38,303 bases of DNA from a virus, in the UHGV virus genome UHGV-0348957, one strand, 5' to 3'. The position numbers were made by a program, and so were the translations under genes. Within the stretch, counting starts at the first letter, position 1. Every line of letters starts with the position of its first letter. This document shows, one piece after another, positions 815 to 19,882 of this stretch. The notes below the pieces were generated by a model, which saw nothing but the letters and a program-made list of their open reading frames with translations, was not told where the DNA came from and searched no databases.

Positions 815-2479
815 ATGGAAAATGTTAAAGATTTATTGAGGACGGCAGACGCCCTGTTCACGGAGATGAATAAGAATTCCGGGGATTGGGATGAATTGCG
901 CCGGCGCATTATGCCGCGGATGGAGGGGAAGGCCCGCCAGCAGGAACAGGCTAATGAGATGACGGCTGCGTCCATTTTTTCTCCGGTGGCGCATAAGTCC
1001 CTTTTGAATTTGGCGTCCGCTCATCTTCTTTTTATTACTCCCATGGATCAGAAGTGGTTTTCCCTGCGGCCGCAGGAGGAAAGGGATGATTACACCGATG
1101 AGGACGATTGGTACAGCAAAGCGACGGAGGCCGTCTACCGCGCGCTGGCGGATTCCAATTTTTATGCGGCGGCCCACGAGGTTTACCTGGACCGTTGCCT
1201 GACAGGGACAGGCTGCATGTTTGCAGATGTTTCCCGTGACGGGTCCCTGGTGTTTAAACACGTCCCTACCGGGACTTATGCGATTGCCGAGGGAGCCCAC
1301 GGGGAGGTGAATACGCTGGTGCGGACGTTGAAGTTTACTGCCCAGCAGGCCGTGGAGATGTTTAAGCTGCGCAATCTGCCTGTCAAGATTCAGGAGGCGT
1401 ATAAGGATGCGGAGAGGCGGTACACCGAGATGTTCGAGTTTGTTCACCTTGTACTGCCCAACAGCCGGGCGCAGTTCGGTTCCGACATGGTAAGGCCTGG
1501 CCGCCGCAAGTGGTTGGACGTGTATATTGCCAGGGAGGCGGAGAAGATTGTTTTCCATGGCGGCTTTTACGAGTTTCCTTTTTTGGTGACGCGCTTTTTG
1601 AAGGGTGGCGTTTCTTCTTACGGCGAGGCTCCGGGCAAAGCTGTGCTGCCGGAGATTAAGGCTACCCTGCTGATGGATCGGGTGATGGATGTGGCCGGCA
1701 GCCGGGCGGCAATTCCCAGCGTTATTGTGTCGGCTAAGATGGCAAAGGAGGTTGATTTGCGGGCCGGAGGCAAGACGGTTGTTCCGGATGAGCTTATTGG
1801 TTCACAGTTTCCGAGGGAATGGGCGAACGTGGGGGATGTGAGGTTTATGCTGGAGCGGCAAGATAAGAAGGAGAAGTTGATCAGGGAGGCGTTTTTCAAT
1901 GATATTCTCCAGGTGGTTTCAAGCGTGGACCGCGAGATGACGGCTACGGAGGTGAATGCCCGCGAGTCGGAACGCATTATTTGCTTTTTTTCTTCTTTCA
2001 TTCAGTTTTCGCAGGATTTCCAGACGATGATGAATCGCATTGTCTGCCTGATGTTCCGCAATATGCAGGGGGCCGTGCTTCCGGGCGACGCGCCTGATGA
2101 GTTTTTTGTCCGTTCCGCCGATGGGGAGAAGTTTGAGTTGCGAACTCCCCGCACCCGCTATCTGGGCAAGATTGCCCAGGCATTTGACCGTTTGCAGAGG
2201 TACGGCCTTGAGGGGGTGCTGAATGGGTTGGCGAAGTATATCCAGGTTTCGGGCGATACCCGCATTGCCAAGCGCATGAAGGCATGGGAGGTGTTGCGGT
2301 TTATGTGGGACAGTTCCGGCGCCCCGTCCAAGTGCATTGTGTCCGCGTCCGAGAATAGCAAGATGGTTGAGGAGGAGAGGGCGCAGGAGGATCAGATGCG
2401 TCAGGCCGCCCTTGCGGAACAATTGGCCAGGGCCGGCAGGGATAGTGCCGCGGCATCCGCACAGTTTAATACGGAATGA
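815..2479 (+). CDS. Portal / head-to-tail connector protein, T7 gp8-like
   Basis: 554 aa; segments LLNLASAHLLFITPMDQKWFSL, SNFYAAAHEVYLDRCLTGTGCMFA and YAIAEGAHGEVNTLV align by pattern with T7 gp8 (LNNLASKLMLALFPMQTWMRL, SNSYRVTLFEALKQLVVAGNVLLY, YRLSSYVVQRDAFGNVLQMV); Gln/Ala-rich C-terminal tail like gp8. Confidence 0.6.
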   Translation: MENVKDLLRTADALFTEMNKNSGDWDELRRRIMPRMEGKARQQEQANEMTAASIFSPVAHKSLLNLASAHLLFITPMDQKWFSLRPQEERDDYTDEDDWYSKATEAVYRALADSNFYAAAHEVYLDRCLTGTGCMFADVSRDGSLVFKHVPTGTYAIAEGAHGEVNTLVRTLKFTAQQAVEMFKLRNLPVKIQEAYKDAERRYTEMFEFVHLVLPNSRAQFGSDMVRPGRRKWLDVYIAREAEKIVFHGGFYEFPFLVTRFLKGGVSSYGEAPGKAVLPEIKATLLMDRVMDVAGSRAAIPSVIVSAKMAKEVDLRAGGKTVVPDELIGSQFPREWANVGDVRFMLERQDKKEKLIREAFFNDILQVVSSVDREMTATEVNARESERIICFFSSFIQFSQDFQTMMNRIVCLMFRNMQGAVLPGDAPDEFFVRSADGEKFELRTPRTRYLGKIAQAFDRLQRYGLEGVLNGLAKYIQVSGDTRIAKRMKAWEVLRFMWDSSGAPSKCIVSASENSKMVEEERAQEDQMRQAALAEQLARAGRDSAAASAQFNTE

Positions 2480-3603: not shown

Positions 3604-4173
3604 ATGATGCCTCAAATGGATAAGGTGACCGTTTTTAACCAGGCTTTGGCCCAGTTGGGGGACCGGGAGTATGTGAAGGGTTCCCCAGCCGGTCGCGCCG
3701 TTGATTTGTGGTGGCCTACCGTGTTGCAGGAAGCGCTGTTGTTCGGGGCATGGACCTGGGCAACCAAACGGGTTGAGATGGAGCGCTCTGTCATGAGGCA
3801 TCCGATTCCGGATGATTGCCTGCGCGTGTTGTATGTGGGGGCGGATTTGTTCCGCATTGAGGGGCGTGATTTGGTGGTTGAGCGTTACGGGAAACGCGCC
3901 GCCGGGACCGATAAGCTGGTGGTGGATTATCTTTCCGACGAGGTGGCCCGCTCCGAAGTGCTGCCGGATCATAGTCCGTTTTTCATCAAGGGCGTTGTGT
4001 TTCTTCTGGCTGGCAGGTGCGCTTTGAAGCTGGCTTCTTCACCCCAGCTTGCGGCCGCTTTGGAGGCACAGGGTGAGGCGTTTTTAAGCAAGGCCCTTTA
4101 TTGGGACACCTGCCAGCATGCTTCCAATGACCAGGATCCGTTAACAGAGATTTTAAACAGTTCCATTTTCTGA
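3604..4173 (+). CDS. Tail tubular protein A / adaptor-like protein (T7 gp11-like)
   Basis: 189 aa; FNQALAQLGD...LLFGAWTWATK resembles T7 gp11 VNDILASIGE...QSRGWTFN; size matches gp11 (196 aa). The track ORF start at 3511 is rejected because the upstream region holds a terminator and the repeated motif. Confidence 0.45.
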   Translation: MMPQMDKVTVFNQALAQLGDREYVKGSPAGRAVDLWWPTVLQEALLFGAWTWATKRVEMERSVMRHPIPDDCLRVLYVGADLFRIEGRDLVVERYGKRAAGTDKLVVDYLSDEVARSEVLPDHSPFFIKGVVFLLAGRCALKLASSPQLAAALEAQGEAFLSKALYWDTCQHASNDQDPLTEILNSSIF

Positions 4174-4177: not shown

Positions 4178-4873
4178 ATGAGTTCCGATTTCGGGGTTTC
4201 CCAGCAGTATAAGTATCAGGGGCAGGCGGCTTTGAGCAACGGGCGCGCCACGCAGGCGGCTTATGAGAAGAAGGCCCGCGCCCTGGAGGCAGAGGCGGTT
4301 TCCGATTCCCACCTGGCCGCCCGCAATATGAAGCGGATGCGCCAGAATCAGAATGCCGCCATGGGGTCTGCACGGGCACAGCGCGGCGGATCCGGTTTTA
4401 CTTCCGAGGGTTCCGGAAGCCAGGCGGAGGTGGCGGTGGCGGATGTGTGGGAGAGCGCCATTGGGGATGCGGCCCTTTCCAACGCGGTTTCCGATGCCAA
4501 TAAGCGGTTTGCCGCGGAGTCCGCCCGATACCAGGGTGATCTGGCCATGATGGCGGCACACAGCGAGGCGGACCAGTATAAGATGCTTTCACAGAATGCC
4601 CTTGGTTCTGCCATGATCCAGACGGCCCTGACGGTGGCGGGGGGAGTCATGGGGGAAGCAGGAATGTCCGGTGGAGGATTGCTGGGGGGTGTTACCGAGA
4701 GCGGGGAGAAGTGGGGAGCCAAGGTAGGAGGAGCCCAGGGGGCTTTTTCCGGGATGATGAATGCTTATTCCCTTTCCGGTTCCCTGGGGGGGATGGTGCC
4801 GGGGAGCATGCAGTCTTCCAACAGGTTGAGGGATTCCCTGCTGGCTAATTTCATGGGTTTTGGAAAGAGATGA
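4178..4873 (+). CDS. Gly/Ala/Ser-rich internal virion protein (gp14-like?), 231 aa
   Basis: Low-complexity GGVMGEAGMSGGGLLGGV... region; position in the internal-core gene block; no catalytic motif. Confidence 0.35.
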   Translation: MSSDFGVSQQYKYQGQAALSNGRATQAAYEKKARALEAEAVSDSHLAARNMKRMRQNQNAAMGSARAQRGGSGFTSEGSGSQAEVAVADVWESAIGDAALSNAVSDANKRFAAESARYQGDLAMMAAHSEADQYKMLSQNALGSAMIQTALTVAGGVMGEAGMSGGGLLGGVTESGEKWGAKVGGAQGAFSGMMNAYSLSGSLGGMVPGSMQSSNRLRDSLLANFMGFGKR

Positions 4874-5211
4874 GCGTTTCTCCCATGCAGCAGGCTTTTT
4901 TACTGATGGAAGCCCAGCGCCCCGGCTGGTTCCGGGAGACCGTTTCCCTGGCGGATGCGGGAGGCGGGGTCGTGTGGTGCTGCCCTTCGTTGTTTTTTGC
5001 GGGGGTGCCAGATCCGGAGTCCCCCAGGACGTTGATTATTCTTTTTGCCCACGGCCGTATGGAGGCCGTCAGGGAGCTGGCTTGTCTGGTGCAGGGGCGT
5101 TTTGACCGGGCAAGGTGGCAGCGCTGCATCCGCGGACGCGAGGACTGGAAGGAGATTTCCATCCCAAGGTTTTTAAGTTTTAACCGTTTCAAGATGAACG
5201 AAGATGAGTGA
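4870..5211 (+). CDS. Hypothetical protein, 113 aa, translationally coupled on both sides
   Basis: ATG overlaps the upstream stop (ATGA) and its stop overlaps the downstream start. Confidence 0.35.
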   Translation: MSVSPMQQAFLLMEAQRPGWFRETVSLADAGGGVVWCCPSLFFAGVPDPESPRTLIILFAHGRMEAVRELACLVQGRFDRARWQRCIRGREDWKEISIPRFLSFNRFKMNEDE

Positions 5212-7162
5212 TTTACAGCAACCCTTGTACGGAGGAACCCGGATGAATGCGGCTTCCTCCACCCCTTCCCCGATCCAGATGCCGGATGTTTCTTCCAAGC
5301 CCGTTCAGAGGGCGCTGCAGAATGCCCAGGAGTTTGTGTCTGATGTTGCCCACCAGTACCAGCGCATGAAGGATTTCGGCGAGCAGACGCGGCTGGAAGG
5401 CCAGATGAATGATTTGGCCAGCGAGTTTGAGCAGGAGATAACACGGAGATTGGGGTTTGCCCGCGGTCATGAGCTGTCTTTTTACGATCGTGACGGGAGG
5501 CTGAAAGAGAGCGCCCTGAATACGTTTGTACGGAATTACGAAGGGAAGTTCCGCGGGTTGAAGGGGAGTTTTGTTTCCCAGGAGGAGGCCTCCAGGTTCG
5601 GAGCCAGAAAGCAGGATGTGATGCGCCGACTCCAGGGGCGGGCATCCGAGTTGATGCTTAAGGGGCAAATTCAGGAGTCCAGGCAGGCTTTTGAGGAAGG
5701 GTTGAAGGGGGATTTGCTGCGGAGGGATTTCCAAGGAGCCACCCGTAGGCGCATTCAGGCTTACGAGGCCGGCATTATTTCTGAGAATGGAATGAACGAC
5801 GGTATTCTGGAAGATACACGGAACGGCCTTTTGGACGAATACGAGCAGGATATGCTGATTAACCCCAGTGTTGCTTTTACGAAGCTTGGGGACGGCTATT
5901 TTGATGCTCTGGGCGCAGGAGATGTTTTAAAGCTGAAGGAGAAGACCAGAAGGTTTTTACGTTCCGCGAACCGCTCCGAAGGTGAAGATGGAGCGCCCGG
6001 TTACAGAAAGGGTTCTCTTTGGCCGAAAGCTTCCCTCCGTTACGGAGCCACGGAGCAGGAATACGACTGGGTGGAGCATTATAACCGGACCGGCAGTTAC
6101 GGGAAATACGCCCCTTCCATTAAGTTTGCCTTCCGGGAGGATTTACGGAATCTGCCTCCCGCCAATTCCGGCGAAGAAAGAACGAGGTACGTCAATGACA
6201 TGTTGAAGAAGTGGGGGCAGTATGGACAGGTTCTTGGAGATGAAAGGAAGCTGCGCCTGTTTGTAGAAGACCGGATTGACGCCATGGGGAGACCCAATAC
6301 GAACCGGAATAATATAGAGGCCGTTTTGAAGGCCATGCCGGATCATGTGTATATTCCTTATTTTTCTTACCAGGTAGCTAATGCTTACAAGAGTGGCGAC
6401 CAGGAGCAGATTAAGAAGGCAGAGAGTACGCGGGATGAGGTGGAGGCAGATATTTTGTATAAGACGGAACTTTCCATGACGGAGTGGAGACAGGCTCATC
6501 CCAATGCCACACTTGCCCAAGATCTTGCGCAGATCCATCAATTTACCGCTTTTCATGCCGGGAACAGGTTTGCCTATCGGCCTATTATTGAAGAAGATAA
6601 GAAAAGATCTGACGAGAGCCGCATGAAGAAGGCGCTGGAGTCCATGCCTTTGTATTCTTTTGAGCAACAGGAAGAGTTGAACGTGTCTCCAGAAGAGAGG
6701 GAGGCCCAGCAAAAGAAGGCGGCACAATATATTAAGGGCCAAAGACCTTATTTGCCTTCCCCTCTTGAGAACCACCCTGTTTCTTTTGTCCGGCATGCTA
6801 CATCCGGAGCGTATGTTTCCAAGCAGGCTTATGAGGCTATCAAGGCTAAGTTTGGGAATAGACCTTTTGCCCGCATTTCTCTGGGACGCAACGGAGCTTT
6901 CCTAAGGGTTCCCGTCGTCGGGGTCTATGAGGGAACCCCGCGGGGCGTTGAGGTTTCAGGACCGCTTTATGAACGCATGGCGTTAAGGTTTCCCGGTGAA
7001 CAGGCCAGCGGGAATGTCAGCATTTACGACGGGAAGGATGAACCGGAAGCGCCGGAAGATGGATACGGACCAGGGTTGCTGCCTCCTTTGCCGGGTGGAG
7101 ACGATACTTACACGCAGGTGAACGATATTGACGACTCCGCTCTTCTTCCTCTTTATCAATAG
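5204..7162 (+). CDS. Internal virion / ejection protein candidate (gp15-like by position), 652 aa, highly charged and helical
   Basis: Lies between gp14-like and the giant gp16-analog gene; no specific motif recognised. Confidence 0.35.
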   Translation: MSDLQQPLYGGTRMNAASSTPSPIQMPDVSSKPVQRALQNAQEFVSDVAHQYQRMKDFGEQTRLEGQMNDLASEFEQEITRRLGFARGHELSFYDRDGRLKESALNTFVRNYEGKFRGLKGSFVSQEEASRFGARKQDVMRRLQGRASELMLKGQIQESRQAFEEGLKGDLLRRDFQGATRRRIQAYEAGIISENGMNDGILEDTRNGLLDEYEQDMLINPSVAFTKLGDGYFDALGAGDVLKLKEKTRRFLRSANRSEGEDGAPGYRKGSLWPKASLRYGATEQEYDWVEHYNRTGSYGKYAPSIKFAFREDLRNLPPANSGEERTRYVNDMLKKWGQYGQVLGDERKLRLFVEDRIDAMGRPNTNRNNIEAVLKAMPDHVYIPYFSYQVANAYKSGDQEQIKKAESTRDEVEADILYKTELSMTEWRQAHPNATLAQDLAQIHQFTAFHAGNRFAYRPIIEEDKKRSDESRMKKALESMPLYSFEQQEELNVSPEEREAQQKKAAQYIKGQRPYLPSPLENHPVSFVRHATSGAYVSKQAYEAIKAKFGNRPFARISLGRNGAFLRVPVVGVYEGTPRGVEVSGPLYERMALRFPGEQASGNVSIYDGKDEPEAPEDGYGPGLLPPLPGGDDTYTQVNDIDDSALLPLYQ

Positions 7163-7179: not shown

Positions 7180-10100
7180 ATGTTTGCACAGGATGTTTTT
7201 GAGAGGTTGGGGCTGTCCCAAGATATGGATTTATTGAAAGAACTCCAGAAAGAGGCATTGTTAGAGCCAACGGAAGCGGCGCAGAGCCCCTATATGGATG
7301 ACCCGGCATATGCCGGTTTTGAGACCTTGCGCGGTTTGTTTGGTTCCAACCATGGAGATAATCCCTCCATGTATTGGCTGGCACAGGGAAAAGAGATGCC
7401 TGAATTTGCCACCGTGGCGGACGCACAGGCTGCCGTCTGGAAGGATTTCCAGAAAAAAGCCCGTGCTTGTCAGGCAGAGCAGGAGCGACAGCAACAGGCA
7501 CGGGAGGCATTGGCTGCTACGATTGATCCCTTCATTGACCGGTACGTGCGCGGGGACACTGTTGTTCCCTCCCCTGAACAGGTAATGATGATGCAGGAGG
7601 CGGGCATTTCCTGGGAGAGTGTCAGACGAGCCCGCAGAGGGATGCAACTTGTCCGGGAATATGACGCGCAGGGCACCCTGTACGACGACAGGATCATCAA
7701 TAATCTGGCGGAACAGGTGGGAGATGATGAGCTGGCACGGCGCATTGTGCTGAATATGTTTTATAATGACGCCAGGAAGTACGCCAAGGATAAGCACGGT
7801 GACGAGTGGACCGGGATTGACTGGATAGATAAGGCAGCCCAGGGGGTAACGGGGATGGTACGCACCGGGGGCGTGAAGGGATGGCGGACAGGTCAGAAGG
7901 CCTGGCGGAATTTACAGGTAATGGGAGAGGTGGATGCCGTTACGAATGCAGCTAAGCGTCTGCCGGAGTTGATTGCTTCCGGAATGGATGTGGATGAAGC
8001 ACGCGCTCAGATTGAGAAGGATGCCACTTTTCTTGAGATACGACGCCGCTGGGCTGCCGATCTGGTTGAAACTATGGAAGCCGGGGAAAAGGAATATCTG
8101 GAAGGGGAGGACCGTCATTTGGTTGGCCGCATTGGTTCGCAGCTTGGTTCCATTATCGGAGATACGGCTCCCTGGTTCATTCCTGCCATTGGTCCTGCTA
8201 TCGGAGCTTCCTCCGCCATGCAATCCCGCAGGGATGAGGGGGTGAGCATTGGGTTAACGATGGAGGAAACGGAGAAGAGGGCCATGATGTTCGGCCAGGC
8301 AGATGCTCTGGAAGAGATGATTGCTTTTTCCCCCATCGGGCGGTTGACGCCCGGATATAAGTGGTTGAAGAAGGCGCTTGGCGGTGGGAAGGCCGCCGGG
8401 AAGCTGGCCCCGTGGCGGGCTCAATGGATGGCGAGTCCGAAGGCCCAATACGCTATTCAAGGGCTTTCCGGTGCTGCGGAAGAGGCCATTTTTGAGCCTA
8501 CAGCCGGGTATTTGATGCGTACTGTACAGAGCATGAACCTGACGGACGAACGCGGAAAACAGACTTTCCGTCAGTATTTGGACGATATGGGGCAGATGAT
8601 GCACGGAGAACAGGGTCTTGCCCTGCTGGCATTTACGTTTGGGATGTCCGGCTTTAATTATCCTCAAATCAAAAAGGCGGCCCAAGAGTTTGGCCTTTCT
8701 TTGCAACATTACAAGGAACTGGGAGGCACGGTCCAGGGGTATCTGGAAGCCAGGGAGGAAAAGACCGCCGAAGGTTTTTTGAATAAGGCTCTTTCCAATT
8801 TGCATGATTCCTGGATGGAGGATCCGCAGGCTTCCATGGAGCGGGCGAGCGCGGCTGCCGGAGAACGCCTTTCCGGGGAACGCATTGAGTCTTTGCGGGA
8901 GCTGGACGCGTGGCGGGCCGCCGAGGATGCCGGCATGGTGCCCAGGGTGGAGCCGGCGGAACAGGAGGGGATGTTCCGGGTGTATGCTCCGGCGCGCGGC
9001 ACGGAAGCGCCGCGGGAGGATGCTTCCGTTTCCGGAGAGGGGCAGGAAGAGGGCGCCCCTTCCTACACGCTGATGGACGGCGAGCAGATGACGGCTTATT
9101 TGCAGGCGTTTGTGGATGCCGATATGGAACATGCCATTGTCGGGGCGCAGCATTTGCTGGCCGGGGATGTGACCGTGGGCCAGGCTCTTGCCCAGGGGCG
9201 TTTTGACGCGGCGGAGGTGATTACACGCACAGTGACGGATGAACAGACAGGGGCCGAACGGGTGGTGATTGCCCCGGAGACGCTGGGGCAGATGAAGGCC
9301 CGCGCGGATATGGCAATGGCCGCTATCCGCGCCCTGGAGGCGGAGGGGGTGAGTTATGAGGAGGCCGCCGCCCGCATGGATGCGTCCCTGAGCGAGCATA
9401 TTCCGCTGGGGACCCTTGTGCAGACATGGGAGGAATCCCAGGAACGCATCAGGACGGAACAGGCCCGGAACCCGGAGTTTAAGGCTCCTGCCATGGATGC
9501 CCCGTTTTCCAACGCTTATGTGACGAAGGTGCGCCGGGGAGATACGTTCCGCCGGGTGTTGAGGTATGCCCGCGGGAGCGCGACGGTGGAGGATTTGATG
9601 GAGGAGACGATGGAACAGGCGGTCATTTCCTGGCAGGCGGAGCAGGGTTTGTCCTGGGACGAGTTCGGCGCGATGCTCCAAGAGGCGCAGAGGGTGATGA
9701 TTGAGTTGTTTCCGGAGGCGCGGGGGGAGGAGATGCAGTTTATTCACCTGGACGCCGGGAAGCCGGTGACGGGTCATGACGCGATTGAGGCGTTTTCCAA
9801 AATCGGGCGTTCCCGCTGGCTGGCGGACACGGTGCGGAGTACGTCCCTGCCCTCCTGGCTGCGGAAGTTGCTGAATCACCTGGTGAAGTTCCTGGGGTAT
9901 TTTAAGGCGCGCGTGGAGTTGGGCGAGATGGTGCGCCAGGCGGAGGAACAGGGCGTGTTTTCCCTGCCGGTGCGTCAGGCCCTGGCGGTGATGCTGGATG
10001 CGGGGAATGCCCTGTACCGGGACCAGCAGGGGGATTTGATGGAGTTGTCCATGGAGCGGGCCAGAGCGCAGGCGGGGCTGGACGCGATGTTTGGCGCGGG

Positions 10101-13100
10101 CGTGGCGACGGAGGCCCGGACGCTGGAGGATGAGCTTGCGGAGAGCAAGGCGCAGGATGAGGCCGACGCGCAGGCGGCAGCGGATGAGGCGCGGGCGCCG
10201 GAGAATTCCCCGGAGGCACAGGAGGCGCGGCGCGAGCGGGAGCAGGCCCGCGTGGAGGCGCTGGGCGAGCCGGATGGGTCAGGGGTGTTTAACGGGGCGT
10301 TTATTGAGGTTCAGGAGGGGGTGCGCCAGGGGTTTATTGAGAAGTCCCGGCTGACGCTTTGCCCGGATGTGCCCCAGTTTAAGCAGGGGGCGGATGAACA
10401 GACCGGGGTGGTGAATCCGATTGTGGGGGCATGGCAGCGCAATGCCGCGCCGATTTCCGTGTGGAGGCGGAAGGATGGCGCCCTGCAGGTGATCAGCGGC
10501 CGGCACCGTTTTAACGCCTGCACGGATGAGGATATTAATTGCACGGTGTATGATGAGGCGGCCGGGTTTGATTTGGATTGGGCGCAGACGCATGATGTGG
10601 AGAATAATATCCGGGACGGGCAGGCTTCCCTGTTTGAGATTGCCCGTTATGTGAGCCGGAAGCGTTTGACGAAGGAGGAGGCGGTGGAAAGGGGGATTTT
10701 CCGCAAGGGGCAGTCCCGCCGCGGAGTGGAACTGGGCCTGTACGGCTGTTCCGATTTGCTGGACGCGCTGGGGAATGAGCTTGTTTCTCCGGATGACGCC
10801 TGGCGCGTGGCGATGGCGTTCCGCAATCAGAACGAGGTGCAGCGGGCCGGGCTGCGTGCCCTGATGGAGGGGAAGAGCTGGCAGGCCGCTTTGGCCGTGA
10901 TGCAGGTGGCCGCGAATATGGACCGCATCCGCGGGCTGGCGGAGGCGGCCGGGATGACGTTTGAGACGGATTTGTTCGGCAATTCCCACGCGGAGGAGTA
11001 TTTTTCAAGGCTGGCCCAGTACGCCGCCGCCCGCGTGAGCGAGCTGACGAGGGAGATTTCTTCCATTAGCGGGGCGAGCAGACGCCCGGAGACGGCCAGG
11101 AAGTATGGCGTGGATGTGAGGGATGCCGCCGCGCTGGAGGCGGTGGTGAAGGATTTGAAGGCGCAGAGGGCCCGATGGCAGAATTTCGGCCTACATGAGG
11201 ATTTGATTAAGGAGGCCAATGACGCCGTGATGGTGGAGCTGGGGGTGAAGACGCGAGAGGAGGTGGACCGGGAGAACGGCGTTCTTCCTTTGGAGGCGCC
11301 GGAACAGGAGGCGGGTTCCGCCGATACGGGGATGTTGCAGCTTTCCCAGGATGTGAGCCGGATGCTGGACGCGGCGCTGACGAGGTGGGCCGCCCCTGCG
11401 GAAGATGAGGCTCCCGCAGCGAATTTTTCCCTGGTGTCCATTTCTTCCGGGGATGTGGTGAGTTCCGCCGCCGGGATGCGGGCGAGGTTGAAGCCGTTGC
11501 AGGGCAAGGTGTTCGTCAATAAGAATACGGGGATCCAGGCCGTGATTGAGGCGCGCGTTTCCGGCAAGACGGTGGGCAAGGCCGGGGCTTCACAAATGTC
11601 CGTGGCGAATTTGAAGGCGCTTGGGTTTTCCGCGGAGGAGGCCCGGAGGGTTCATTATACGGCGGCCACCCGCATTCATGAGTTGTTTGAGAATGCGGAG
11701 GATGGATTTTTTGAAGAGGCGTATAAACAAGATGCCTCAAAAGCCGGAGCCTATCATTTTTTCAATACAGTAGATATTGAAGGGATAGGAGCGTTTGATG
11801 TTAATGTTACAGCAATCAAATACGTTAAGGAACAGGAAGGTAACGTTCTTTACACGCTGGAATTGACCATAGAAAACCCCGCCACTAGGGGAGCTGCTAG
11901 CCGGGAAGGCCGCCTACCTACACCCTTCAAGGACGGGGTTTCTACCCGTAATTTATCTTCTTACCGTTCTTTTGTCGAGAAGGAAAAGGCGGCTGTCAGG
12001 AAGAAGGCGGAGTCTGACGGGACGTTCATGAAGGCTCCGAATGGGAAGGATACGAACCTGACGGAAGACCAGTGGCTTTCCGTGCGCACGGAGGCGTTTA
12101 AGAGTTGGTTTGGCGATTGGGAGCATGACCCGGAGAACGCTTCCAAGGTAGTGGACGAGAATGGGGAGCCGCTGGTGGTGTATCATGGTTCCCCGCATGT
12201 TTTTACCGTGTTTGACGTGGAGCGTTCCGGAGAGAATTTTAACCGGAGCCGGGAGGATGGAGGGTTGTTGTTTTTTTCTTCCCTGCCGGAGACGGCGGAA
12301 GATGTGCTTTATGATTTAGAGGGACGTTTTCCGGGGACCGGGTTGGAGAGTGCGCGGCTGTATGCGTGTTTTATGAGGTTGAGGCGTCCGTTTATGCTGG
12401 ATCTTGGCGATGCTTCACAGCGCCCGTTTTCCGGGGAAGGTGTGCCGGAGAACGTGAAGGGTTCCCCGATGGCGTGGTATTTGTTTCCTCACGAGTTGAG
12501 GAGAGGGTTTGATGAGGGGAATGCTCATGGCGCGGGTTATGACGGTGTTGTTTTGAAGGGCAAGAATGCTTATGACGGGAGTCCGGAGGTGTGGGGGATG
12601 GCTACGGATTCCCGGCAGGTGAAGAGCGCTGTCGATAACCGCGGGACGTTTGATTCAGATAGTCCGGATATTACGTTTTCCATTATTGGGGAGAAGGCTG
12701 AATCCTTCCAGGAGTACCACAATAACGGCCTTTCCTACACGGATCCGGCGGACGGGAAGCGGAAGGCGATTATTGATTCCCGCGGGGTGCGGTTGAGGAA
12801 GGAGCACGTCAGCGTGAGCGAGGGGGGGCATGTGAATGTTTCCCTGGCCGCGGCCCTGGATTTTCCGGAACTGTTCCGGGCCTACCCGGAGCTGCGGAGG
12901 CTGCGGGTGGATTTTTACCGCGACAGCGGGAGCGGCACGGGAGGGTTTACCGATCCGCAGGAGCATTATATTGCCGTGAATGTGGCACGGGGCGGGAAGA
13001 ACGCGGCTCCCGGCATGGTGCTGGATACGATTTTACACGAGGTGCAGCATGTGATTCAGGGGTATGAGGGGTTTGCCCAGGGGGCCGGGAGCATGAGCCG

Positions 13101-16100
13101 GGAGCAGGCGCTTGCTTATCTGGGCGGGAGCATGAGCCAGCTGGCGGGCCGGGGCGACGACTGGGCGAAGGCGGCCCTACCCCGCCTGGAGCGGATGAAG
13201 CGGGAGCTGGAGGCTGGGACGTTGCAGCCGGCGTTTGTGTATGTTTTTTCCCACGGGGAGCAGGAGGCGCGGCTGGCCGGGACGTTTGAGAAGAATAGCG
13301 AGGGGGTCTTGATGAGCGGGCTGAACGGGTTCCGGCTGCTGGACGCTCCGCAGTTTTCGATTCCGCTGACGGGGGATATTACGGAGCTTGGCGGCATTAC
13401 GTTCGGGGCCGGGAGGTTTGGACGGATGGCCGGCAGGGTTCTGGCTCCGAACGGGGATTGGCTTTACGATGAGATGGTGTTCAGGATGCGGGCCGCCACG
13501 CAGCGGTCCGTGAGTAAGCTGCGCCTGTTTGAGACCGGGGACCGGGAGCGCGGCCTTGAGCTGCTGGCGGAGGCGCAGGAGCTGATTTCCACGGTGGAGC
13601 GGTATTTGCCTGATTCTTACGGGTTCGGGCTGGAACCTTACAAGATCTGGCTGAATGTGTTTTCCCTGCTTTACGGGAATAGCGGGAAGATGGCGCCGGG
13701 CGATGCGGTGGCCAGCGCGTTGGAAGCGATTCCGATGAGGAGGTGGCCGGAGATTATGGAGGGGAGCATTGGCAGGAGTTTTGTCAATTGGGCGGAGAAG
13801 AGGCCGGAGCTGGAGGATGTGGTGGTGGAGGCCCGGAGGGAGATTGCCGAACGGCAGGCCGATTACGAGCTGGATTCTGCTCCGGACGCGGATAACAGGG
13901 CCGCCCTGGCGGCCCGCAAGGGGGTGGAACAGGAGGTGTGGCGCCGGTTGTTTGAGGAGCACGGGGCCGAGTTTCTGGAGGAGTACGGGGAGCAGAAGGT
14001 GTTCCGGCTTGTAGGGAAGTTTATGGAGCGCGTGGTGGAGCAGATTGACCGCTTCCGGAAGGACCGGACGCTGGGGCGCATCCGCCGCGTGGCGGCTTCC
14101 GTGGCTCCGCGGACGAATCCGCAGGGGAAGCCGATGCGCGGGAAGATGGACGCGGAGAGTTACCGGAGGCTGGAGAGGTGCTTGCGCCTGCTGGAGATGA
14201 CCGAGAGCCAGTACGATGAGTTTTTCCAGAAGAATTTTCCGGAGGATGCCGAAGAGGGGAAGAGGTGGGAGGATCTGGCCCCGGATGCGCTGGTGCTGGT
14301 GACGCTGCCCGACGCGGAAGGGAGGCTGGAAGAGGTGGCCGTAACGCAGCGGGAGTTTGAGGTTTACGCCTGTTATGAACGGATGGACGTGAATACCGCG
14401 GAGAAGTGCGGCGCGGCCCTTGGAGAATTGATTGCCACGTCCCGCCATGCCTGGGAGAACGCAGCGGAGAAGAAGAAGCTGGAGGTTGCCGCCATGGCCG
14501 CCCCACTGCTGCAGGCCACCGGGGAGTTGGATGATAACAGGATGGCGACGTTCCGCCGGAAGGCGAGGCTGCGGGCCCTCCCCAAGAAGCCCCTTTCCCT
14601 GTTTGATTATCTGATGAATTTTAATCAGTATATGCAGGCGCTTTCTTCCGTGGAGCCGTTTGCCGGGGTTGCCCGCCAGTTTGAGGAACGGGCGGCGCGG
14701 TTTAATGTGCAGCGGCAGGCGAGCGAGAAGGAGATGCTGCGTTTTGTGCATCATACCGTAGCGGAGATTGCGGGGTCCGCGGACCGGTATGATATTGCCG
14801 AGTGGATTTATGAGGGGCGCATGAAGCAGGATACGGGGATTTCCGTTGTGGAGCGGGAACCGGATTGGAACAGGAAAGCAAACGCCCTGTACCGGGAACG
14901 CCTTCTTCATTTGCTGCGCCGGAAGGTGAAGTCCCACGGGCTGGAAGCGGTGCAGCTTTATTTGAGGGAGTTTAAGCTTTCCGAGGATTTGAAGAAGGAG
15001 GTGAACGCCCTGTTCGGGCACCGCCGCAAGGAGATTTCCGCCAAGCAGGCGAAGAAGGCATTGGAGCACATGGAGCGCGTGTTTACGCAGAAGGAGTGGG
15101 AGCGGTACGGGGACCAGAAGGTTTTTGCGAGGGAGCGGGCGGAGATGCTGCGCTCCAGGACGAAGTACGCCAAAGAGGGGTATCAGCCGAAGAGTTTCCG
15201 GCTGGATGGCCTGTCCCGGATGGAGGCGGCGTATTTGGTGCTGTTGTCCGAGCAGGCGGATTATACCGAGGCCCTGGCGGAACGCGGGTTTGACGCGGAG
15301 GTGATGGACCAGCTGCGCGGGTTTGCCGGGGATGAGGTGATGCAGTTTGCTTACGCCTTGAGAGAGAAATTGAATGAACGGAGCGGACAGGTGCAGGAGA
15401 TGACCGAGAGGCGCTACGGCACGCCGTTTCCGCTGACGGAGAATTATTTCCGGGCGTTTTTCGATGTGACGATGGAGGCGATTGATAAGTCGATTGCTGA
15501 TGCGGCGTCTTACGGGGAAGCGGCCACAGGCGGGAAGTTCGGGTTGATTCACGCCCGCCGGAAGCATCAGGCACACCTGGATTTGGAGATGGATGTTTGC
15601 ACGGCGTTTATGGCGGCCATGACCGAGCAGGATCTTTACCTGTATGGTTCCGAGATCAGCCGTGATTTGCGGGCCCTGCTGAATTTTAAGGGTGAGGATG
15701 GCGAGGCGGGCCGGAGCCTGGAGGTGCTGTTGGGGCGGGATGCCGTGGGCAAGCTGATGGCCTGGGCGGATGCGTTTGACCGCGCCGGGGCGGAGAGTAT
15801 CCGGGGGCACCTGGATATGAACCGCCTGATGAACCGGCTTTCCGGCGCGGCGGCGCGGGTGCTGCTGGCCGGGCGCGTGGGGACGCTGACCAAGCAGGTG
15901 ACGACAGTGATTAACGCGATGTATGCTTCCGACGAGATTGGCCTTGCCGAGTGGCTGGGGGCCGTCCGCCGGTATCACGCCGGGAAGCTGGTGAAGCCTG
16001 TGCGCGAGATAGAGGCTCTGCCGGAGCTGGACAGCCGCGACAAGACGCGGTTCAGCGCTACGCTGGCTGCCATGGGGGCCGACGAGGCCGGGCGCCGGGT

Positions 16101-16965
16101 GTCCCGCCTGGAACGCTGGAACCGGGAGGGGATGGATTTGCTGGAGCGGGTGGATATGAAGGGGAATGCGATTTCCGCGGCTATTTTGTACGATGCGGTT
16201 TACCGGAAGATGAAGCGTGAGACGCCGGACGCTGCGGAGGCCGAGCTTGACGCGGCCGCCATGGCGGAGGTGCGGCGCTCCCTGTCCCGCAAGGGTCAGC
16301 CGATGACGCAGCTGCAGAAGTCCCTGGCCGCGCAGCACCGAACCTGGATGCAGGCGGGGATGTTGTTCCTGGGCGGCGAGTCAATCAATACGATGGGCAA
16401 TGTGTTTTCCCTGGCCCGCAGCGGGCAATGGGGGAAGGCCGGGTTGATGTGGGTTTCTCACGGGGTGGTGCTTGCGATTCTGAATGGCCTGCTTAATTTC
16501 ATGACCGATGACGAGAAGCGCCGCCGGAAACGGGAGTGGTGGCACGCCCTGTTTGATGTGGTGATGGGGCCCGTGATGGGGATTCCTGTAGTAAGCGGGC
16601 TGGCTGGTGAGGGCGTGAGGCAGCTTGCGAAGCTGTGCGGGTATCATGCTTTTATGCCGGGGAATAATTTGCTGGTGCCGTTTTCTAATGCGGCGGATAT
16701 CGGGAAGGCGTTTTCCAACGCCTGGAAGTTGTTTGACGGCAAGGAACGGCCCTGGGAGGATGACGCCCTTTCTTTCCACGAGCTTTTACGCACCGCAGTA
16801 GCGGGGACGGTGGCTTTTTCTCCACGGACAACCAAGGGGGGCGCCGCTGCTGTAGGAGCCGCCCTGACGATGGCGCTTCTGCTGAATGTGACGGAGTTTG
16901 CCCTTAAAACAGTCCGCAGCGTTCAGGAGAACGGTGCGGACTGGGATAAGTGGGTTGGGAAGTAG
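7180..16965 (+). CDS. Giant polyvalent virion protein (3261 aa): ParB-like nuclease domain, ART-like (ADP-ribosyltransferase, polyvalent-protein type) module, HExxH zincin-like metallopeptidase, hydrophobic C-terminal segments
   Basis: ParB motif: GALQVISGRHRFNAC (~nt 10476-10520). ART-like: FKSWFGDWE...PLVVYHGSPHVFTVFDVERSG...LLFFSS (~nt 12097-12290). Zincin: MVLDTILHEVQHVIQGYEGF (~nt 13020-13080). Predicted C-terminal TM-like segments AGLMWVSHGVVLAILNGLLNF, VVMGPVMGIPVVSGLAG, AAAVGAALTMALLLNV (~nt 16350-16930). The single ORF has uniform codon usage. Confidence 0.75.
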   Translation: MFAQDVFERLGLSQDMDLLKELQKEALLEPTEAAQSPYMDDPAYAGFETLRGLFGSNHGDNPSMYWLAQGKEMPEFATVADAQAAVWKDFQKKARACQAEQERQQQAREALAATIDPFIDRYVRGDTVVPSPEQVMMMQEAGISWESVRRARRGMQLVREYDAQGTLYDDRIINNLAEQVGDDELARRIVLNMFYNDARKYAKDKHGDEWTGIDWIDKAAQGVTGMVRTGGVKGWRTGQKAWRNLQVMGEVDAVTNAAKRLPELIASGMDVDEARAQIEKDATFLEIRRRWAADLVETMEAGEKEYLEGEDRHLVGRIGSQLGSIIGDTAPWFIPAIGPAIGASSAMQSRRDEGVSIGLTMEETEKRAMMFGQADALEEMIAFSPIGRLTPGYKWLKKALGGGKAAGKLAPWRAQWMASPKAQYAIQGLSGAAEEAIFEPTAGYLMRTVQSMNLTDERGKQTFRQYLDDMGQMMHGEQGLALLAFTFGMSGFNYPQIKKAAQEFGLSLQHYKELGGTVQGYLEAREEKTAEGFLNKALSNLHDSWMEDPQASMERASAAAGERLSGERIESLRELDAWRAAEDAGMVPRVEPAEQEGMFRVYAPARGTEAPREDASVSGEGQEEGAPSYTLMDGEQMTAYLQAFVDADMEHAIVGAQHLLAGDVTVGQALAQGRFDAAEVITRTVTDEQTGAERVVIAPETLGQMKARADMAMAAIRALEAEGVSYEEAAARMDASLSEHIPLGTLVQTWEESQERIRTEQARNPEFKAPAMDAPFSNAYVTKVRRGDTFRRVLRYARGSATVEDLMEETMEQAVISWQAEQGLSWDEFGAMLQEAQRVMIELFPEARGEEMQFIHLDAGKPVTGHDAIEAFSKIGRSRWLADTVRSTSLPSWLRKLLNHLVKFLGYFKARVELGEMVRQAEEQGVFSLPVRQALAVMLDAGNALYRDQQGDLMELSMERARAQAGLDAMFGAGVATEARTLEDELAESKAQDEADAQAAADEARAPENSPEAQEARREREQARVEALGEPDGSGVFNGAFIEVQEGVRQGFIEKSRLTLCPDVPQFKQGADEQTGVVNPIVGAWQRNAAPISVWRRKDGALQVISGRHRFNACTDEDINCTVYDEAAGFDLDWAQTHDVENNIRDGQASLFEIARYVSRKRLTKEEAVERGIFRKGQSRRGVELGLYGCSDLLDALGNELVSPDDAWRVAMAFRNQNEVQRAGLRALMEGKSWQAALAVMQVAANMDRIRGLAEAAGMTFETDLFGNSHAEEYFSRLAQYAAARVSELTREISSISGASRRPETARKYGVDVRDAAALEAVVKDLKAQRARWQNFGLHEDLIKEANDAVMVELGVKTREEVDRENGVLPLEAPEQEAGSADTGMLQLSQDVSRMLDAALTRWAAPAEDEAPAANFSLVSISSGDVVSSAAGMRARLKPLQGKVFVNKNTGIQAVIEARVSGKTVGKAGASQMSVANLKALGFSAEEARRVHYTAATRIHELFENAEDGFFEEAYKQDASKAGAYHFFNTVDIEGIGAFDVNVTAIKYVKEQEGNVLYTLELTIENPATRGAASREGRLPTPFKDGVSTRNLSSYRSFVEKEKAAVRKKAESDGTFMKAPNGKDTNLTEDQWLSVRTEAFKSWFGDWEHDPENASKVVDENGEPLVVYHGSPHVFTVFDVERSGENFNRSREDGGLLFFSSLPETAEDVLYDLEGRFPGTGLESARLYACFMRLRRPFMLDLGDASQRPFSGEGVPENVKGSPMAWYLFPHELRRGFDEGNAHGAGYDGVVLKGKNAYDGSPEVWGMATDSRQVKSAVDNRGTFDSDSPDITFSIIGEKAESFQEYHNNGLSYTDPADGKRKAIIDSRGVRLRKEHVSVSEGGHVNVSLAAALDFPELFRAYPELRRLRVDFYRDSGSGTGGFTDPQEHYIAVNVARGGKNAAPGMVLDTILHEVQHVIQGYEGFAQGAGSMSREQALAYLGGSMSQLAGRGDDWAKAALPRLERMKRELEAGTLQPAFVYVFSHGEQEARLAGTFEKNSEGVLMSGLNGFRLLDAPQFSIPLTGDITELGGITFGAGRFGRMAGRVLAPNGDWLYDEMVFRMRAATQRSVSKLRLFETGDRERGLELLAEAQELISTVERYLPDSYGFGLEPYKIWLNVFSLLYGNSGKMAPGDAVASALEAIPMRRWPEIMEGSIGRSFVNWAEKRPELEDVVVEARREIAERQADYELDSAPDADNRAALAARKGVEQEVWRRLFEEHGAEFLEEYGEQKVFRLVGKFMERVVEQIDRFRKDRTLGRIRRVAASVAPRTNPQGKPMRGKMDAESYRRLERCLRLLEMTESQYDEFFQKNFPEDAEEGKRWEDLAPDALVLVTLPDAEGRLEEVAVTQREFEVYACYERMDVNTAEKCGAALGELIATSRHAWENAAEKKKLEVAAMAAPLLQATGELDDNRMATFRRKARLRALPKKPLSLFDYLMNFNQYMQALSSVEPFAGVARQFEERAARFNVQRQASEKEMLRFVHHTVAEIAGSADRYDIAEWIYEGRMKQDTGISVVEREPDWNRKANALYRERLLHLLRRKVKSHGLEAVQLYLREFKLSEDLKKEVNALFGHRRKEISAKQAKKALEHMERVFTQKEWERYGDQKVFARERAEMLRSRTKYAKEGYQPKSFRLDGLSRMEAAYLVLLSEQADYTEALAERGFDAEVMDQLRGFAGDEVMQFAYALREKLNERSGQVQEMTERRYGTPFPLTENYFRAFFDVTMEAIDKSIADAASYGEAATGGKFGLIHARRKHQAHLDLEMDVCTAFMAAMTEQDLYLYGSEISRDLRALLNFKGEDGEAGRSLEVLLGRDAVGKLMAWADAFDRAGAESIRGHLDMNRLMNRLSGAAARVLLAGRVGTLTKQVTTVINAMYASDEIGLAEWLGAVRRYHAGKLVKPVREIEALPELDSRDKTRFSATLAAMGADEAGRRVSRLERWNREGMDLLERVDMKGNAISAAILYDAVYRKMKRETPDAAEAELDAAAMAEVRRSLSRKGQPMTQLQKSLAAQHRTWMQAGMLFLGGESINTMGNVFSLARSGQWGKAGLMWVSHGVVLAILNGLLNFMTDDEKRRRKREWWHALFDVVMGPVMGIPVVSGLAGEGVRQLAKLCGYHAFMPGNNLLVPFSNAADIGKAFSNAWKLFDGKERPWEDDALSFHELLRTAVAGTVAFSPRTTKGGAAAVGAALTMALLLNVTEFALKTVRSVQENGADWDKWVGK

Positions 16966-17082
16966 ATACAAAAACTTGCCTGTTGAAAATAATCGTGGGA
17001 GTGATATTTCCCAAATAATTCATATGGAAAGAGTATTGGGAAAAGATATCATGCATTCTATTTATTGCTATAATATTAGTAA

Positions 17083-17517
17083 TTAATCAGTTGGGAAAGA
17101 ATTTGTTTTTATACTTTTCCCTGTTCCCAATTTTATTTCTGCAAATTTTGCTCCCATTTTTTTCATTCTCTCGTAATCCTCTTGTGGATAATATACAGAA
17201 ACGTTAGAAAATGGTTCTAATTTAATAGGAAACGTCCCTCCATTAGAAATTCTGGCTTTCGCAGAAAAGTAATTTTGTTTATTATGCAATGGAAAATATA
17301 CATTTTGAATGTAAACAGCATCTCTTCCTTTATTAATAATTTCTATACTTATATAATGCTTTGTGTATGGCCCCCAACATCCTATAGCAAATCTAAAATT
17401 TGCTTCAACTTTTAATTTATCACGGGAATATTGACGATATGCTACAAATACACTAACTATAGTTGCTATTATACTTAATATAAAGCTTACATCTTCTCTT
17501 AAAATAGTAAATTCCAT
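17083..17517 (-). CDS. Membrane-anchored hypothetical protein (N-terminal TM helix), AT-rich accessory gene
   Basis: 144 aa; TM segment FILSIIATIVSVFVAY; low GC unlike the phage core. Confidence 0.5.
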   Translation of the reverse strand: MEFTILREDVSFILSIIATIVSVFVAYRQYSRDKLKVEANFRFAIGCWGPYTKHYISIEIINKGRDAVYIQNVYFPLHNKQNYFSAKARISNGGTFPIKLEPFSNVSVYYPQEDYERMKKMGAKFAEIKLGTGKSIKTNSFPTD

Positions 17518-17569
17518 TTATTTACTCCTCCACAGATTTTACAGTTATTGCCTCTGGGCGTAGCGCTGG

Positions 17570-18250
17570 CTATAAATGGGCTCCGTTTTTAATCAGTAAA
17601 TTCACAATATCAGATTGCCTATGTCCATGCACTCTTAAATAAAATAAAGGTGTCCATCCTTTAATATTCTTAGTATTAACATCTGCTCCATAGTTAATCA
17701 GCAATTGAAGCATTTCTGAGTTATTAGATAACACTGCTTGCCATATTGGAGGGTATACACTCTTTGTTCCTTGATGTATATTCGCTCCATTTTCCAAAAG
17801 AATCTTAGCAACTTCCAAATGATTGCCTCCAGAAGCAGCTATAAGAGGAGTAGAATCTCCACATAAGGCATTTACATCAGCCCCTCTTGATATTAGTAAC
17901 TTTGTTGTTTCTATAAAATGTTGTTCATTTTTTTTATTTGATGATATTGAAAAATATAATGCTGTCTCTCCTGTGTTGTATCTTGTCTCAATATTAGCCC
18001 CCTTATCTAATAACAATTTCACCATAGCAACATCACCATTATTTGCTGCTTCTAATAATGGGTTAAAATCGTATCTATGTTGGCGAACACTATTTATAGC
18101 TGCTCCTTTTTCAATCAAATCTTTTGCTTTCCCGACATCGGAAGATCTAACCGCTTCTTCCAACTGAATATTTAATTCAGCTTGTCTTTGTTGAGGAGAT
18201 ACACAAGAAACAATGCTCAATAAGCAAATAAATAGCACCACCTTTTTCAT
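17570..18250 (-). CDS. Ankyrin-repeat lipoprotein
   Basis: Signal peptide with lipobox-like MKKVVLFICLLSIVSC; at least 4 ANK repeats (e.g. FNPLLEAANNGDVAMVKLLLDKGANI, GDSTPLIAASGGNHLEVAKILLENGANI). Start chosen at the MKK ATG (18250). Confidence 0.75.
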   Translation of the reverse strand: MKKVVLFICLLSIVSCVSPQQRQAELNIQLEEAVRSSDVGKAKDLIEKGAAINSVRQHRYDFNPLLEAANNGDVAMVKLLLDKGANIETRYNTGETALYFSISSNKKNEQHFIETTKLLISRGADVNALCGDSTPLIAASGGNHLEVAKILLENGANIHQGTKSVYPPIWQAVLSNNSEMLQLLINYGADVNTKNIKGWTPLFYLRVHGHRQSDIVNLLIKNGAHL

Positions 18251-18261
18251 ACTTTTTCTAA

Positions 18262-18549: not shown

Positions 18550-18557
18550 ACAAATTC

Positions 18558-18587
18558 ATAATACCATGAAATAAAGAGAGTTGTAAA
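18558..18587 (-). promoter_or_regulatory. Sigma70-like promoter candidate (TTTACA-N18-TATTAT) directly upstream of the YHYH gene
   Basis: - strand reads TTTACAactctctttatttcatggTATTATgaatttgtATG; the -10 is only 8 nt from the ATG, which would imply a leaderless or near-leaderless transcript. Confidence 0.3.
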
Positions 18588-18675
18588 TAATTTGCTTAAC
18601 TCCTTCAAAAGCATTATGAAATGATTATTTCCAACATTTTAGGAGATATTTCCTTCTCGACTCTAGGTAGCAGTA

Positions 18676-18708: not shown

Positions 18709-18716
18709 GAAGTGTT

Positions 18717-19046: not shown

Positions 19047-19099
19047 TCCCCAGAATTATCATACCGGAAAAGGGAAAACAAGAGGTGATGCATTCAACA

Positions 19100-19878: not shown

Positions 19879-19882
19879 AATA

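Follow-up and report, generated by a model that had tools for sequence, protein, structure and literature searches.

A giant polyvalent protein at the end of the podovirus-type late operon of an Akkermansia phage

The virion RNA polymerase gp50 of phage N4 (about 3500 amino acids, aa) is a giant protein that is packaged in a podovirus head and ejected first, and Alt of phage T4 is an ADP-ribosyltransferase (ART) which is packaged in the head, injected with the DNA and modifies host proteins. Polyvalent proteins, such as DdrB/DarB of P1 and the jhp1044 family of Helicobacter prophages, were defined by Iyer et al. 2017 (J Bacteriol, PMC5512222). Their phage-type hub domains are a metallopeptidase (MPTase), an ART of the H-Y-D class, a DdrB-like ParB domain and LPD3; they are associated with late and virion genes, show extreme mosaicism, and were proposed to be packaged, injected and processed by their own MPTase (PMC5512222). 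N4 gp50 and its relatives contain an MPTase, and some of the relatives an ART of the same clade (PMC5512222). The polyvalent protein gp47 of the Shiga toxin (Stx) phage phi24B (2811 aa) was found in virions by proteomics and is proposed to form, as an ejection protein, a trans-periplasmic conduit (bioRxiv 10.64898/2026.04.10.717836). Here we describe a giant open reading frame (ORF) of this kind in UHGV virus genome UHGV-0348957, a stretch of 38,303 nucleotides (nt) which we refer to, at its full length, as the window. The window is an Akkermansia phage, with short stretches of 90-94% nt identity to the Akkermansia phages Chambord, Chantilly and DTMo-2021a, and an identical giant protein is found on more than 23 gut-metagenome contigs, one of which is a 242-kb scaffold.

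The giant protein has what defines a polyvalent protein: multiple unrelated effector domains, a late, virion-type context with portal and terminase genes, and mosaicism among its orthologs. Its architecture is that of a fixed scaffold (an N-side region, a ParB-like domain, a zincin and a C-terminal module with transmembrane (TM)-like helices) around a variable central cassette. We consider it probable that this is a phage-type polyvalent protein on a conserved giant scaffold, which occupies the last slot of a podovirus ejection-protein cassette and is packaged and ejected. The parts of the gene are the following.

7180..16965, plus strand: giant ORF, 3261 aa and a stop codon, ATG start, no internal stop
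7180..8079, plus strand: N-terminal region (aa 1-300), helical in a low-confidence model, with at least three allelic variants at 16-35% identity
8080..10299, plus strand: N-side scaffold (aa 301-1040), shared by 25-50 of 87 large homologs
10327..11214, plus strand: ParB/sulfiredoxin (Srx)-like domain, core aa 1050-1215 with a helical extension to aa 1345; VISGRHR at aa 1104-1110
11491..11784, plus strand: LPD3 domain (aa 1438-1535), borderline score
11995..12651, plus strand: predicted ADP-ribosyltransferase module, a head (aa 1606-1650) and then ART-PolyVal (aa 1659-1824)
12673..12684, plus strand: junction motif TFSI (aa 1832-1835), an insertion site in relatives
12802..13314, plus strand: zincin-like metallopeptidase (aa 1875-2045), with HEVQH at aa 1953-1957 (nt 13036-13050), E1963 and GEQEAR at aa 2026-2031
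13363..16962, plus strand: C-terminal all-helical scaffold module (aa 2062-3261)
16438..16494, plus strand: hydrophobic TM-like segment 1 (aa 3087-3105), with the strongly basic loop TDDEKRRRKRE between it and segment 2
16546..16602, plus strand: hydrophobic TM-like segment 2 (aa 3123-3141), P3136 invariant
16849..16905, plus strand: hydrophobic TM-like segment 3 (aa 3224-3242), N3236 invariant

A preliminary description of the window, made from its letters alone, had reported one uninterrupted 9.8-kb ORF, and this holds. The orthologous ORF was taken from 52 loci of IMG/VR and four of ENA/Logan; 38 of the copies (31 distinct sequences) are complete and intact, with 3099-3951 aa and 65-99% identity. 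The ratio of non-synonymous to synonymous substitution rates (dN/dS; Nei-Gojobori method, comparison with five divergent alleles in 11 segments) lies at 0.03-0.56 over nearly the whole giant, with a peak of 0.69-0.85 in the segment of aa 2061-2300, which includes a small hypervariable patch. Given the intact copies and a dN/dS below 1, a frameshift or fusion artefact, that is, several genes read as one, is excluded, and the giant ORF is a real gene under purifying selection along its whole length. The gene takes a quarter of the phage genome, and the strong purifying selection on it argues that it is still used. The hypervariable patch is a part of the scaffold (aa ~2200-2300, 13780-14080) that switches between two versions of 42-49% identity, and it could be a diversifying or interaction surface.

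Mosaicism is seen in several regions of the protein. Among Akkermansia phages there are two or three alleles of the N-terminal 500 aa (16-56% identity), two of the LPD3 region (aa 1400-1600; 15-22%), alleles at 11-27% identity of the C-terminal half of the ART, and two of the C-terminal 960 aa (~45%), where blocks of 100 aa have 27-74% identity, in most cases 42-59%. All four combinations of N- and C-terminal alleles are found, and there are sharp breakpoints in the synonymous rate (dS) between neighbouring segments; in the copy of contig L009, for instance, dS goes from 0.03 to more than 1.1 at aa 2300. The cassette modules and the terminal alleles are thus swapped by recombination. The alleles of the N-terminal region travel together with those of the upstream adaptor, 231-aa and 652/786/695-aa genes, a pairing that linkage, or co-adaptation with partners, would give.

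Within the central cassette, the identity of the ART is solid at the level of domain profiles. The ART-PolyVal family (PF18760) matches aa 1659-1824 above its cutoff of 31.2 bits, at 56.3 bits when the protein is taken whole and at 62.3 bits when it is taken as a tile, and the motifs named in the preliminary description are all present: FKSWFGDWE at aa 1640, VVYHGS at aa 1666 and FFSS, as LLFFSS, at aa 1696. The first of them closes a conserved head, APNG..LT..VRT..FKSWFGDWE, that matches phrog_30335. The active site of H-Y-D ARTs consists of a His on strand 1, a Tyr on strand 2 and an Asp on strand 5 (Iyer et al. 2017, PMC5512222); H1669 in VVYHGS and the Asp of YDGV are kept in all alleles. 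For LPD3 (PF18798) the scores lie on either side of the threshold of 27 bits (25.5 for the whole protein, 29.0 for a tile), and the alternative allele of this region in contig L019 scores 37.4 bits. Relatives have insertions right after the TFSI junction: at aa 1836 they hold 228, 338 or 536 additional aa, bounded in each case by xTFSx, that make up a second zincin (DUF6782, 28 bits), an additional ART-like module (23 bits) or the two together. In the wider family, the head motif F[KRQ]xWF[GS].. occurs 30 times against 0 in shuffled sequences and the tail motif [IVLA]T[FY]S[ILMV] 40 times against 3.3, with a typical head-to-tail spacing of 190-220 aa. Effector turnover is limited to this central cassette (~aa 1350-1870), where relatives carry extra modules.

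The zincin-like region follows the cassette, and its HEVQH at aa 1953 is the sole HExxH of the giant. In an alignment of eight segments from distant homologs, at 32-42% identity, H1953, E1954, H1957, E1963 and G2026-E2027-x-E2029 are invariant. The HExxH helix and the distal GExE(A/S)R helix are separated by a variable insert, as is also described for the MPTases of polyvalent proteins (Iyer et al. 2017, PMC5512222). Five of the eight homologous segments match the metallopeptidase family DUF6782 (best E 2.3e-7), others match SprT-like, Tox-MPTase2 or Peptidase_M91, and the DUF6782 cutoff of 27 bits is passed by homolog P0015 (27.8 bits) and by the insert of contig L030 (28.0 bits). The Pfam MPTase-PolyVal model has no match to the giant. 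Taken together, the invariant motifs and the weak but agreeing matches support a zincin-like identity at the family level.

The ParB/Srx-like domain has a VISGRHR motif (G1107, R1108, H1109, R1110) that does not vary among 14 giants sharing 20-32% identity and that lines up with GERR/GVHR in Noc and SbnI. By tblastn, aa 1058-1345 are linked to polyvalent proteins, DarB-like or "methylase", from phages of Vibrio and Shewanella. When the model of aa 1030-1200 was compared with PDB by Foldseek, the top match was Caulobacter ParB (6t1f_C), with a probability of 0.90 but an E of 0.099 and a target TM-score of 0.26, and the N-domain of pNOB8 ParB (5k5a) ranked eighth (probability 0.75). A family profile against PDB matched proteins of the ParB/Srx fold only (Noc, SbnI and sulfiredoxin; six of six matches, aligned on GxxR), all weakly, at E 0.18-0.4. 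Each of these lines is weak alone, but all of them agree, and a ParB/Srx-like fold is supported at the family level.

Recognised domains cover ~25-30% of the giant, so that the share without one, given as about 60% in the preliminary description, is nearer 70%. To see how widely this remainder is conserved, aa 2062-3261 were compared exhaustively by HMMER (phmmer) with 1.84 billion cluster representatives, of which 290 matched at E<=1e-3 and 90 at E<=1e-30. Nearly all of the 290 are 2.2-6.1 thousand aa long, and the match lies at their extreme C-terminus. When the whole giant was then compared with the 87 large hits, aa 2300-3200 were shared by most of them, aa 700-1300 (with the ParB-like domain) by about 50, the zincin by 30-36, aa 300-700 by about 25, and the LPD3/ART region by only 9-22. 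Among 13 distant members, Pfam found ART-PolyVal in five, the PBECR5 nuclease in five, LPD3 in three and MuF_C in one. The N-side scaffold (aa 301-1040), which has no Pfam, PHROG or PDB match, holds a Gly/Pro-rich semi-hydrophobic motif, GDTAPWFIPAIGPAIG (aa ~326-345), with an invariant P335. The hydrophobic C-terminus that had been noted earlier is confirmed, as across all 3261 residues the Kyte-Doolittle profile peaks at 1.3 or more only in the three C-terminal segments, which all lie within the last 180 residues. The C-terminal model gave nonspecific helical matches only in a Foldseek comparison with PDB (E>=0.15). In BFVD it had 24 matches at E<1e-3, all of them C-terminal pieces of giant phage proteins; these neighbours are named for various enzyme domains and include the 'Structural protein' of two podoviruses, Tenacibaculum phage Gundel_1 and Flavobacterium phage elemoC. 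The unannotated ~70% is thus mostly conserved scaffold, in a fixed order across the family, rather than a string of undiscovered effectors, and the earlier suggestion that it may hide further effector modules is mostly not supported.

The giant gene is the last of the late operon. Its ATG lies 18 nt past the stop codon of a co-oriented 652-aa gene, and the late genes run in the order endolysin, T7-type portal, scaffold-like 251-aa protein, gp11-like adaptor, 231-aa protein, 113-aa protein, 652-aa protein and giant. The genes that bear on its position are given here, the gp14 and gp15 labels being positional.

815..2479, plus strand: T7-type portal protein (PF12236, E 1e-76)
3604..4173, plus strand: head-tail adaptor, 189 aa, gp11-like (phrog_394)
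4178..4873, plus strand: 231-aa Gly/Ala/Met-rich protein at the 'gp14 position', kept in relatives
4870-5211: 113-aa ORF after the 231-aa gene
5204..7162, plus strand: 652-aa helical protein at the 'gp15 position', directly 5' of the giant gene
33234..36059, plus strand: tail nozzle, 941 aa, gp12 analogue (PDB 8ck1_A 'Tail Nozzle', E 2e-49)

The N-terminus of the adaptor, VFNQALAQLGD, resembles VNDILASIGE, which we take to be the corresponding sequence of T7 gp11. Relatives of the giant at 22-37% identity share the context of a T7-type portal (PF12236) and a Phage_capsid_2 protein; a homolog of the 652-aa protein, 529-801 aa long, comes ahead of the giant in all the relatives that were examined, and the giant is often the last late gene, next to an integrase. 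The order of genes in these contigs is as follows.

L079 and L081: amidase, portal (PF12236), ~90 aa, scaffold, capsid (PF19821), adaptor, 232-257 aa, 692-801 aa, giant
L038: integrase, capsid, 147 aa, adaptor, nozzle, 171 aa, 635 aa, giant
L063, L072 and L074: 828-838 aa in the nozzle position, 256-273 aa, ~113 aa (146 aa in L074), 602-748 aa, giant

The giant of L079 has an integrase and host genes 3' of it, L072 has an additional 225-aa ORF before its giant, and in L063 the series reads 256 aa, 114 aa, 692 aa, giant. From the capsid onward, the series in L079 and L081 reads 230 aa, 232/257 aa, 692/801 aa, giant. Homology between the 828-838-aa protein of L063, L072 and L074 and the nozzle of the window was not detected. 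In the distant L083 (19827-24926) the integrase comes right after the giant, and capsid, scaffold and portal lie beyond it on the opposite strand, an arrangement that divides the structural module between two divergent arms, one on either side of the attachment region. The order in the relatives is that of T7, gp10, gp11, gp12, gp13/14, gp15 and gp16, and the 'gp16 position' given in the preliminary description is well supported by synteny, as a position only. Searches of PDB with the giant, as a single sequence and as a family profile, gave no usable match, and none was found in PDB for the 652-aa protein or its family profile, or by tblastn for the 652-aa protein in 50,697 phage genomes. A scan of one genome per species, based on a six-sequence alignment, found the closer family (29-92% identity) only in metagenome-assembled genomes (MAGs) of Akkermansia, from humans, sheep, roe deer and rabbits, and a word-index-limited homolog search with three pieces of the giant (1000-1200 aa each) likewise returned Akkermansia relatives only.

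The remainder of the element contains the following genes.

Early genes: RecT, exonuclease, two DNA methyltransferases and replication genes
Terminase region: TerS, the 941-aa nozzle and TerL, all in the element
Minus-strand block right after the giant gene: 144-aa ORF
17570-18283, minus strand: ankyrin-repeat protein (Ank E 1e-29)
19883-20767, minus strand: ClpP/SDH-like serine protease
Low-GC minus-strand block, minus strand: S24 repressor
Within 32245-33114, between TerS and nozzle: 289-aa ORF without assigned function, 36% GC

The late operon ends with the giant gene, and immediately 3' of it the guanine-plus-cytosine (GC) content falls from ~60% to ~32%. Low-GC (32-45%) minus-strand blocks lie at 17000-21000 and 32245-33114, the rest of the genome being at 55-63% GC, and these blocks look like horizontally acquired morons. 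The nozzle gene has moved out of the adaptor/internal-protein cassette and stands here just 5' of TerL; its product is longer than in relatives (941 aa vs 759-877 aa), with an internal duplication or insertion of roughly 200 aa. The two methyltransferase genes are adjacent in the early region (27979-29948), one of the C5-cytosine type (PF00145) and the other of the Dam-like D12 type (PF02086), and with them the phage has conventional anti-restriction methylation besides the giant protein. A 193-aa endolysin ORF (PG_binding_3) spans the ends of the window (38087-38303 joined to 1-486), so that the genome is closed or circularly permuted. Four contigs of the lineage of the window (L002, L006, L027 and L044) have ~5 kb more between TerL and endolysin, a Chantilly-like stretch that encodes a 684/752-aa protein and three small ORFs and has no Pfam match. 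In L058-L060, host genes (ParB, M28 peptidase, BatA) lie ~1.3 kb past the endolysin, beyond two small minus-strand ORFs, and a SieB-like gene is found in related contigs.

If the giant is indeed an ejected polyvalent protein, it would be made late, packaged in the head along with the upstream 231-, 113- and 652-aa proteins and, at infection, ejected via the portal-adaptor-nozzle channel. The helical C-terminal module with its three hydrophobic helices would insert in the cytoplasmic membrane and help to form or anchor a trans-envelope conduit, like T7 gp16. The central cassette would in this way be brought to or into the cytoplasm, with a ParB/Srx-like module for nucleoside triphosphate-dependent nicking or nuclease activity, LPD3 and an H-Y-D-class ART, and its targets there, to judge from the domain families, could be host DNA or proteins at the very onset of infection. 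The zincin beside the cassette would most likely process the polypeptide itself and free the modules, as proposed for the class by Iyer et al. 2017. We infer packaging and ejection by analogy with the described systems, and the giant may have an anti-defence role.

A number of results weigh against this reading. Neither T7 gp14, gp15 and gp16 nor any solved ejection protein showed sequence or fold similarity to the proteins in the corresponding positions here, so that of the preliminary placement after gp14- and gp15-like genes it is the synteny that stands, and the giant and its three upstream partners have no peptidoglycan-degrading domain in Pfam (a Glucosaminidase match at E 0.33 is noise). 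Homology to phi24B gp47 was rejected, as hhalign gave a weak alignment of the zincin helix only, with a probability of 0.3. The models are weak: the AlphaFold model of the N-terminal 1200 aa has a mean predicted local distance difference test (pLDDT) of 45.9, with only aa 1030-1200 confident (pLDDT 77-90), and that of the C-terminal module, all-helical, one of 62.7. At the profile level, ParBc (PF02195) and ddrB-ParB had no Pfam match at E<=5 in the tile of aa 900-1250, the PF02195 flag that homolog P0022 bears from precomputed annotation could not be reproduced at E<=0.01, and the zincin of the window scores 14.4-16.3 bits where the Pfam threshold is 27. The ParB-like fold and the HExxH peptidase of the preliminary description are therefore carried by their invariant residues and, respectively, by the agreeing fold and profile matches and by the DUF6782 matches of homologs, and not by Pfam matches of the window copy. 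In the ART, the Tyr position of the GFYFT alleles, a strand assignment not checked on structure, is Phe in the window and F/I/W/C elsewhere, which leaves its catalytic competence uncertain.

The gene content of the element weighs in the same direction. No recognisable major capsid protein gene is present in the 38.3-kb element, where tblastn with three capsid proteins of the family had no match, and no integrase, tail fibre or receptor-binding protein was recognised in it either. The gap between the scaffold and adaptor genes is only 110 bp (junction 3493-3604, within 2738-4173); a Phage_capsid_2 gene (PF19821) lies between them in L066, L079 and L081 and, before a small ORF and the adaptor, in L038, and L083 has its PF19821 capsid gene on the opposite strand. 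The 652-, 231-, 251- and 941-aa proteins were each considered as the missing capsid and rejected, since each has a homolog in relatives with a PF19821 capsid, and the 941-aa protein is also ruled out by its identity as tail nozzle. The element could be a defective prophage, helper-dependent, or in possession of a capsid gene that is not recognisable as such. A lost capsid together with a giant under purifying selection would imply helper-dependent packaging or a virion-independent role, which we regard as less likely. With no recognisable capsid, integrase or fibre gene in this lineage, packaging of the window copy is inferred, not shown.

A more specific version of the ejected polyvalent protein is possible, although we hold it with considerable reserve, namely a one-polypeptide 'ejectosome plus payload', in which the C-module with its TM hairpin would form or anchor the inner-membrane end of the DNA conduit, and the zincin would cut at the FKxWFGDW/PDITFS junctions and free an exchangeable payload, so that the two parts could evolve separately. 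That payload (ParB-like, LPD3, ART, PBECR and others) may then be released into the host cytoplasm.

It seems unlikely that the giant is instead a late, membrane-anchored multi-enzyme that is not packaged and acts in the producing or lysogenic cell, in superinfection exclusion, takeover or a toxin-like manner. The C-terminal TM-like helices would suit this, as they would anchor the protein in the producer's own membrane, and so would the purifying selection on an ORF in an element with no recognisable capsid gene and the moron-like flanking genes (the ankyrin-repeat protein, the ClpP/SDH-like protease and, in related contigs, the SieB-like gene). However, the giant lies inside the structural operon, in the orientation of the other genes and 18 nt after the gene at the gp15 position, its position is constant in every relative with a complete podovirus module, its fold relatives are annotated as podovirus structural proteins, and there are precedents for the packaging of the polyvalent class, in the prediction of Iyer et al. 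and in phi24B gp47.

Decay of the enzyme-like modules, which would leave a purely structural, non-catalytic ejection or core protein (a gp16 analogue), would account for the ParB and zincin copies of the window being under Pfam thresholds, for the Phe in place of the Tyr of other ART alleles, and for a scaffold that is far more widely conserved than the modules. It is nevertheless decidedly unlikely, given that GRHR, HExxH...E...GExEAR and the His and Asp of the ART are invariant across homologs of 20-30% identity, that dN/dS in the module regions is 0.04-0.56, and that the modules are exchanged and duplicated, not lost.

Still less probable, in our view, is that the gene is a relic of a defective prophage, a real but functionless ORF in an element that can no longer build capsids: the capsid, integrase and fibre genes that relatives have are indeed not recognisable in the 38.3 kb, but a 9.8-kb ORF would decay quickly without selection, and we find 38 intact copies at 65-99% identity with dN/dS well below 1 over 9.8 kb, and recombinant alleles in all four N-/C-terminal combinations. 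We also considered a tail fibre or a tape measure and rejected the idea, since the giant has enzyme modules and TM helices at its C-terminus and belongs to a podovirus context.

The phages of Akkermansia muciniphila, a major commensal of the human gut, have hardly been characterised. As the giant makes up a quarter of the genome, the course of the first minutes after infection, be it takeover, counter-defence or the exclusion of competitors, probably depends mainly on it. The split of the family into a delivery scaffold of ~2000 aa and a swappable cassette can guide the choice of mutations for the study of ejection as opposed to that of the effectors, and several hundred natural variants are available for the definition of new domain models. 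The concept itself is unchanged, injected polyvalent proteins and giant podovirus ejection proteins having already been described.

In regards to these described systems, the giant resembles T7 gp16 in being the last and largest product of a three- or four-gene cassette after the adaptor and nozzle, in its many helices and in having hydrophobic segments compatible with insertion in the cytoplasmic membrane; its upstream partners, of 231 and 652 aa, are similar in size to those in T7, of 196 and 747 aa. It differs from T7 gp16 in its size, which is 2.5 times greater, in the lack of an N-terminal lytic transglycosylase and in enzyme modules that are absent from gp16. N4 gp50 differs in its RNA polymerase module, which has no counterpart here, and in its phage lineage and scaffold, and T4 Alt is a single-domain ART of the R-S-E clade from a myovirus. 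The phi24B gp47 gene (L080, 24149-32572; LPD5, LPD1, LPD38 and MuF-C) also encodes a giant polyvalent protein and is also the last gene of the structural region of a temperate podovirus, with a different domain set and a different capsid and portal lineage. The polyvalent proteins of Iyer et al. share with the giant the presence of several unrelated effectors in one very large protein, the same hub domains, virion genes as neighbours, mosaicism and the predicted fate. What sets the giant apart from them is that its modules lie between parts of a ~2000-aa scaffold without Pfam or LPD model that ends in TM-like helices, that the window protein is without a MuF or SPP1-gp7-type head-targeting domain, and that the ddrB-ParB and MPTase-PolyVal models are unmatched. 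The giant is therefore an additional member of a class whose concept is already published, and together with its relatives it makes up a large family whose scaffold regions are as yet without a domain model.

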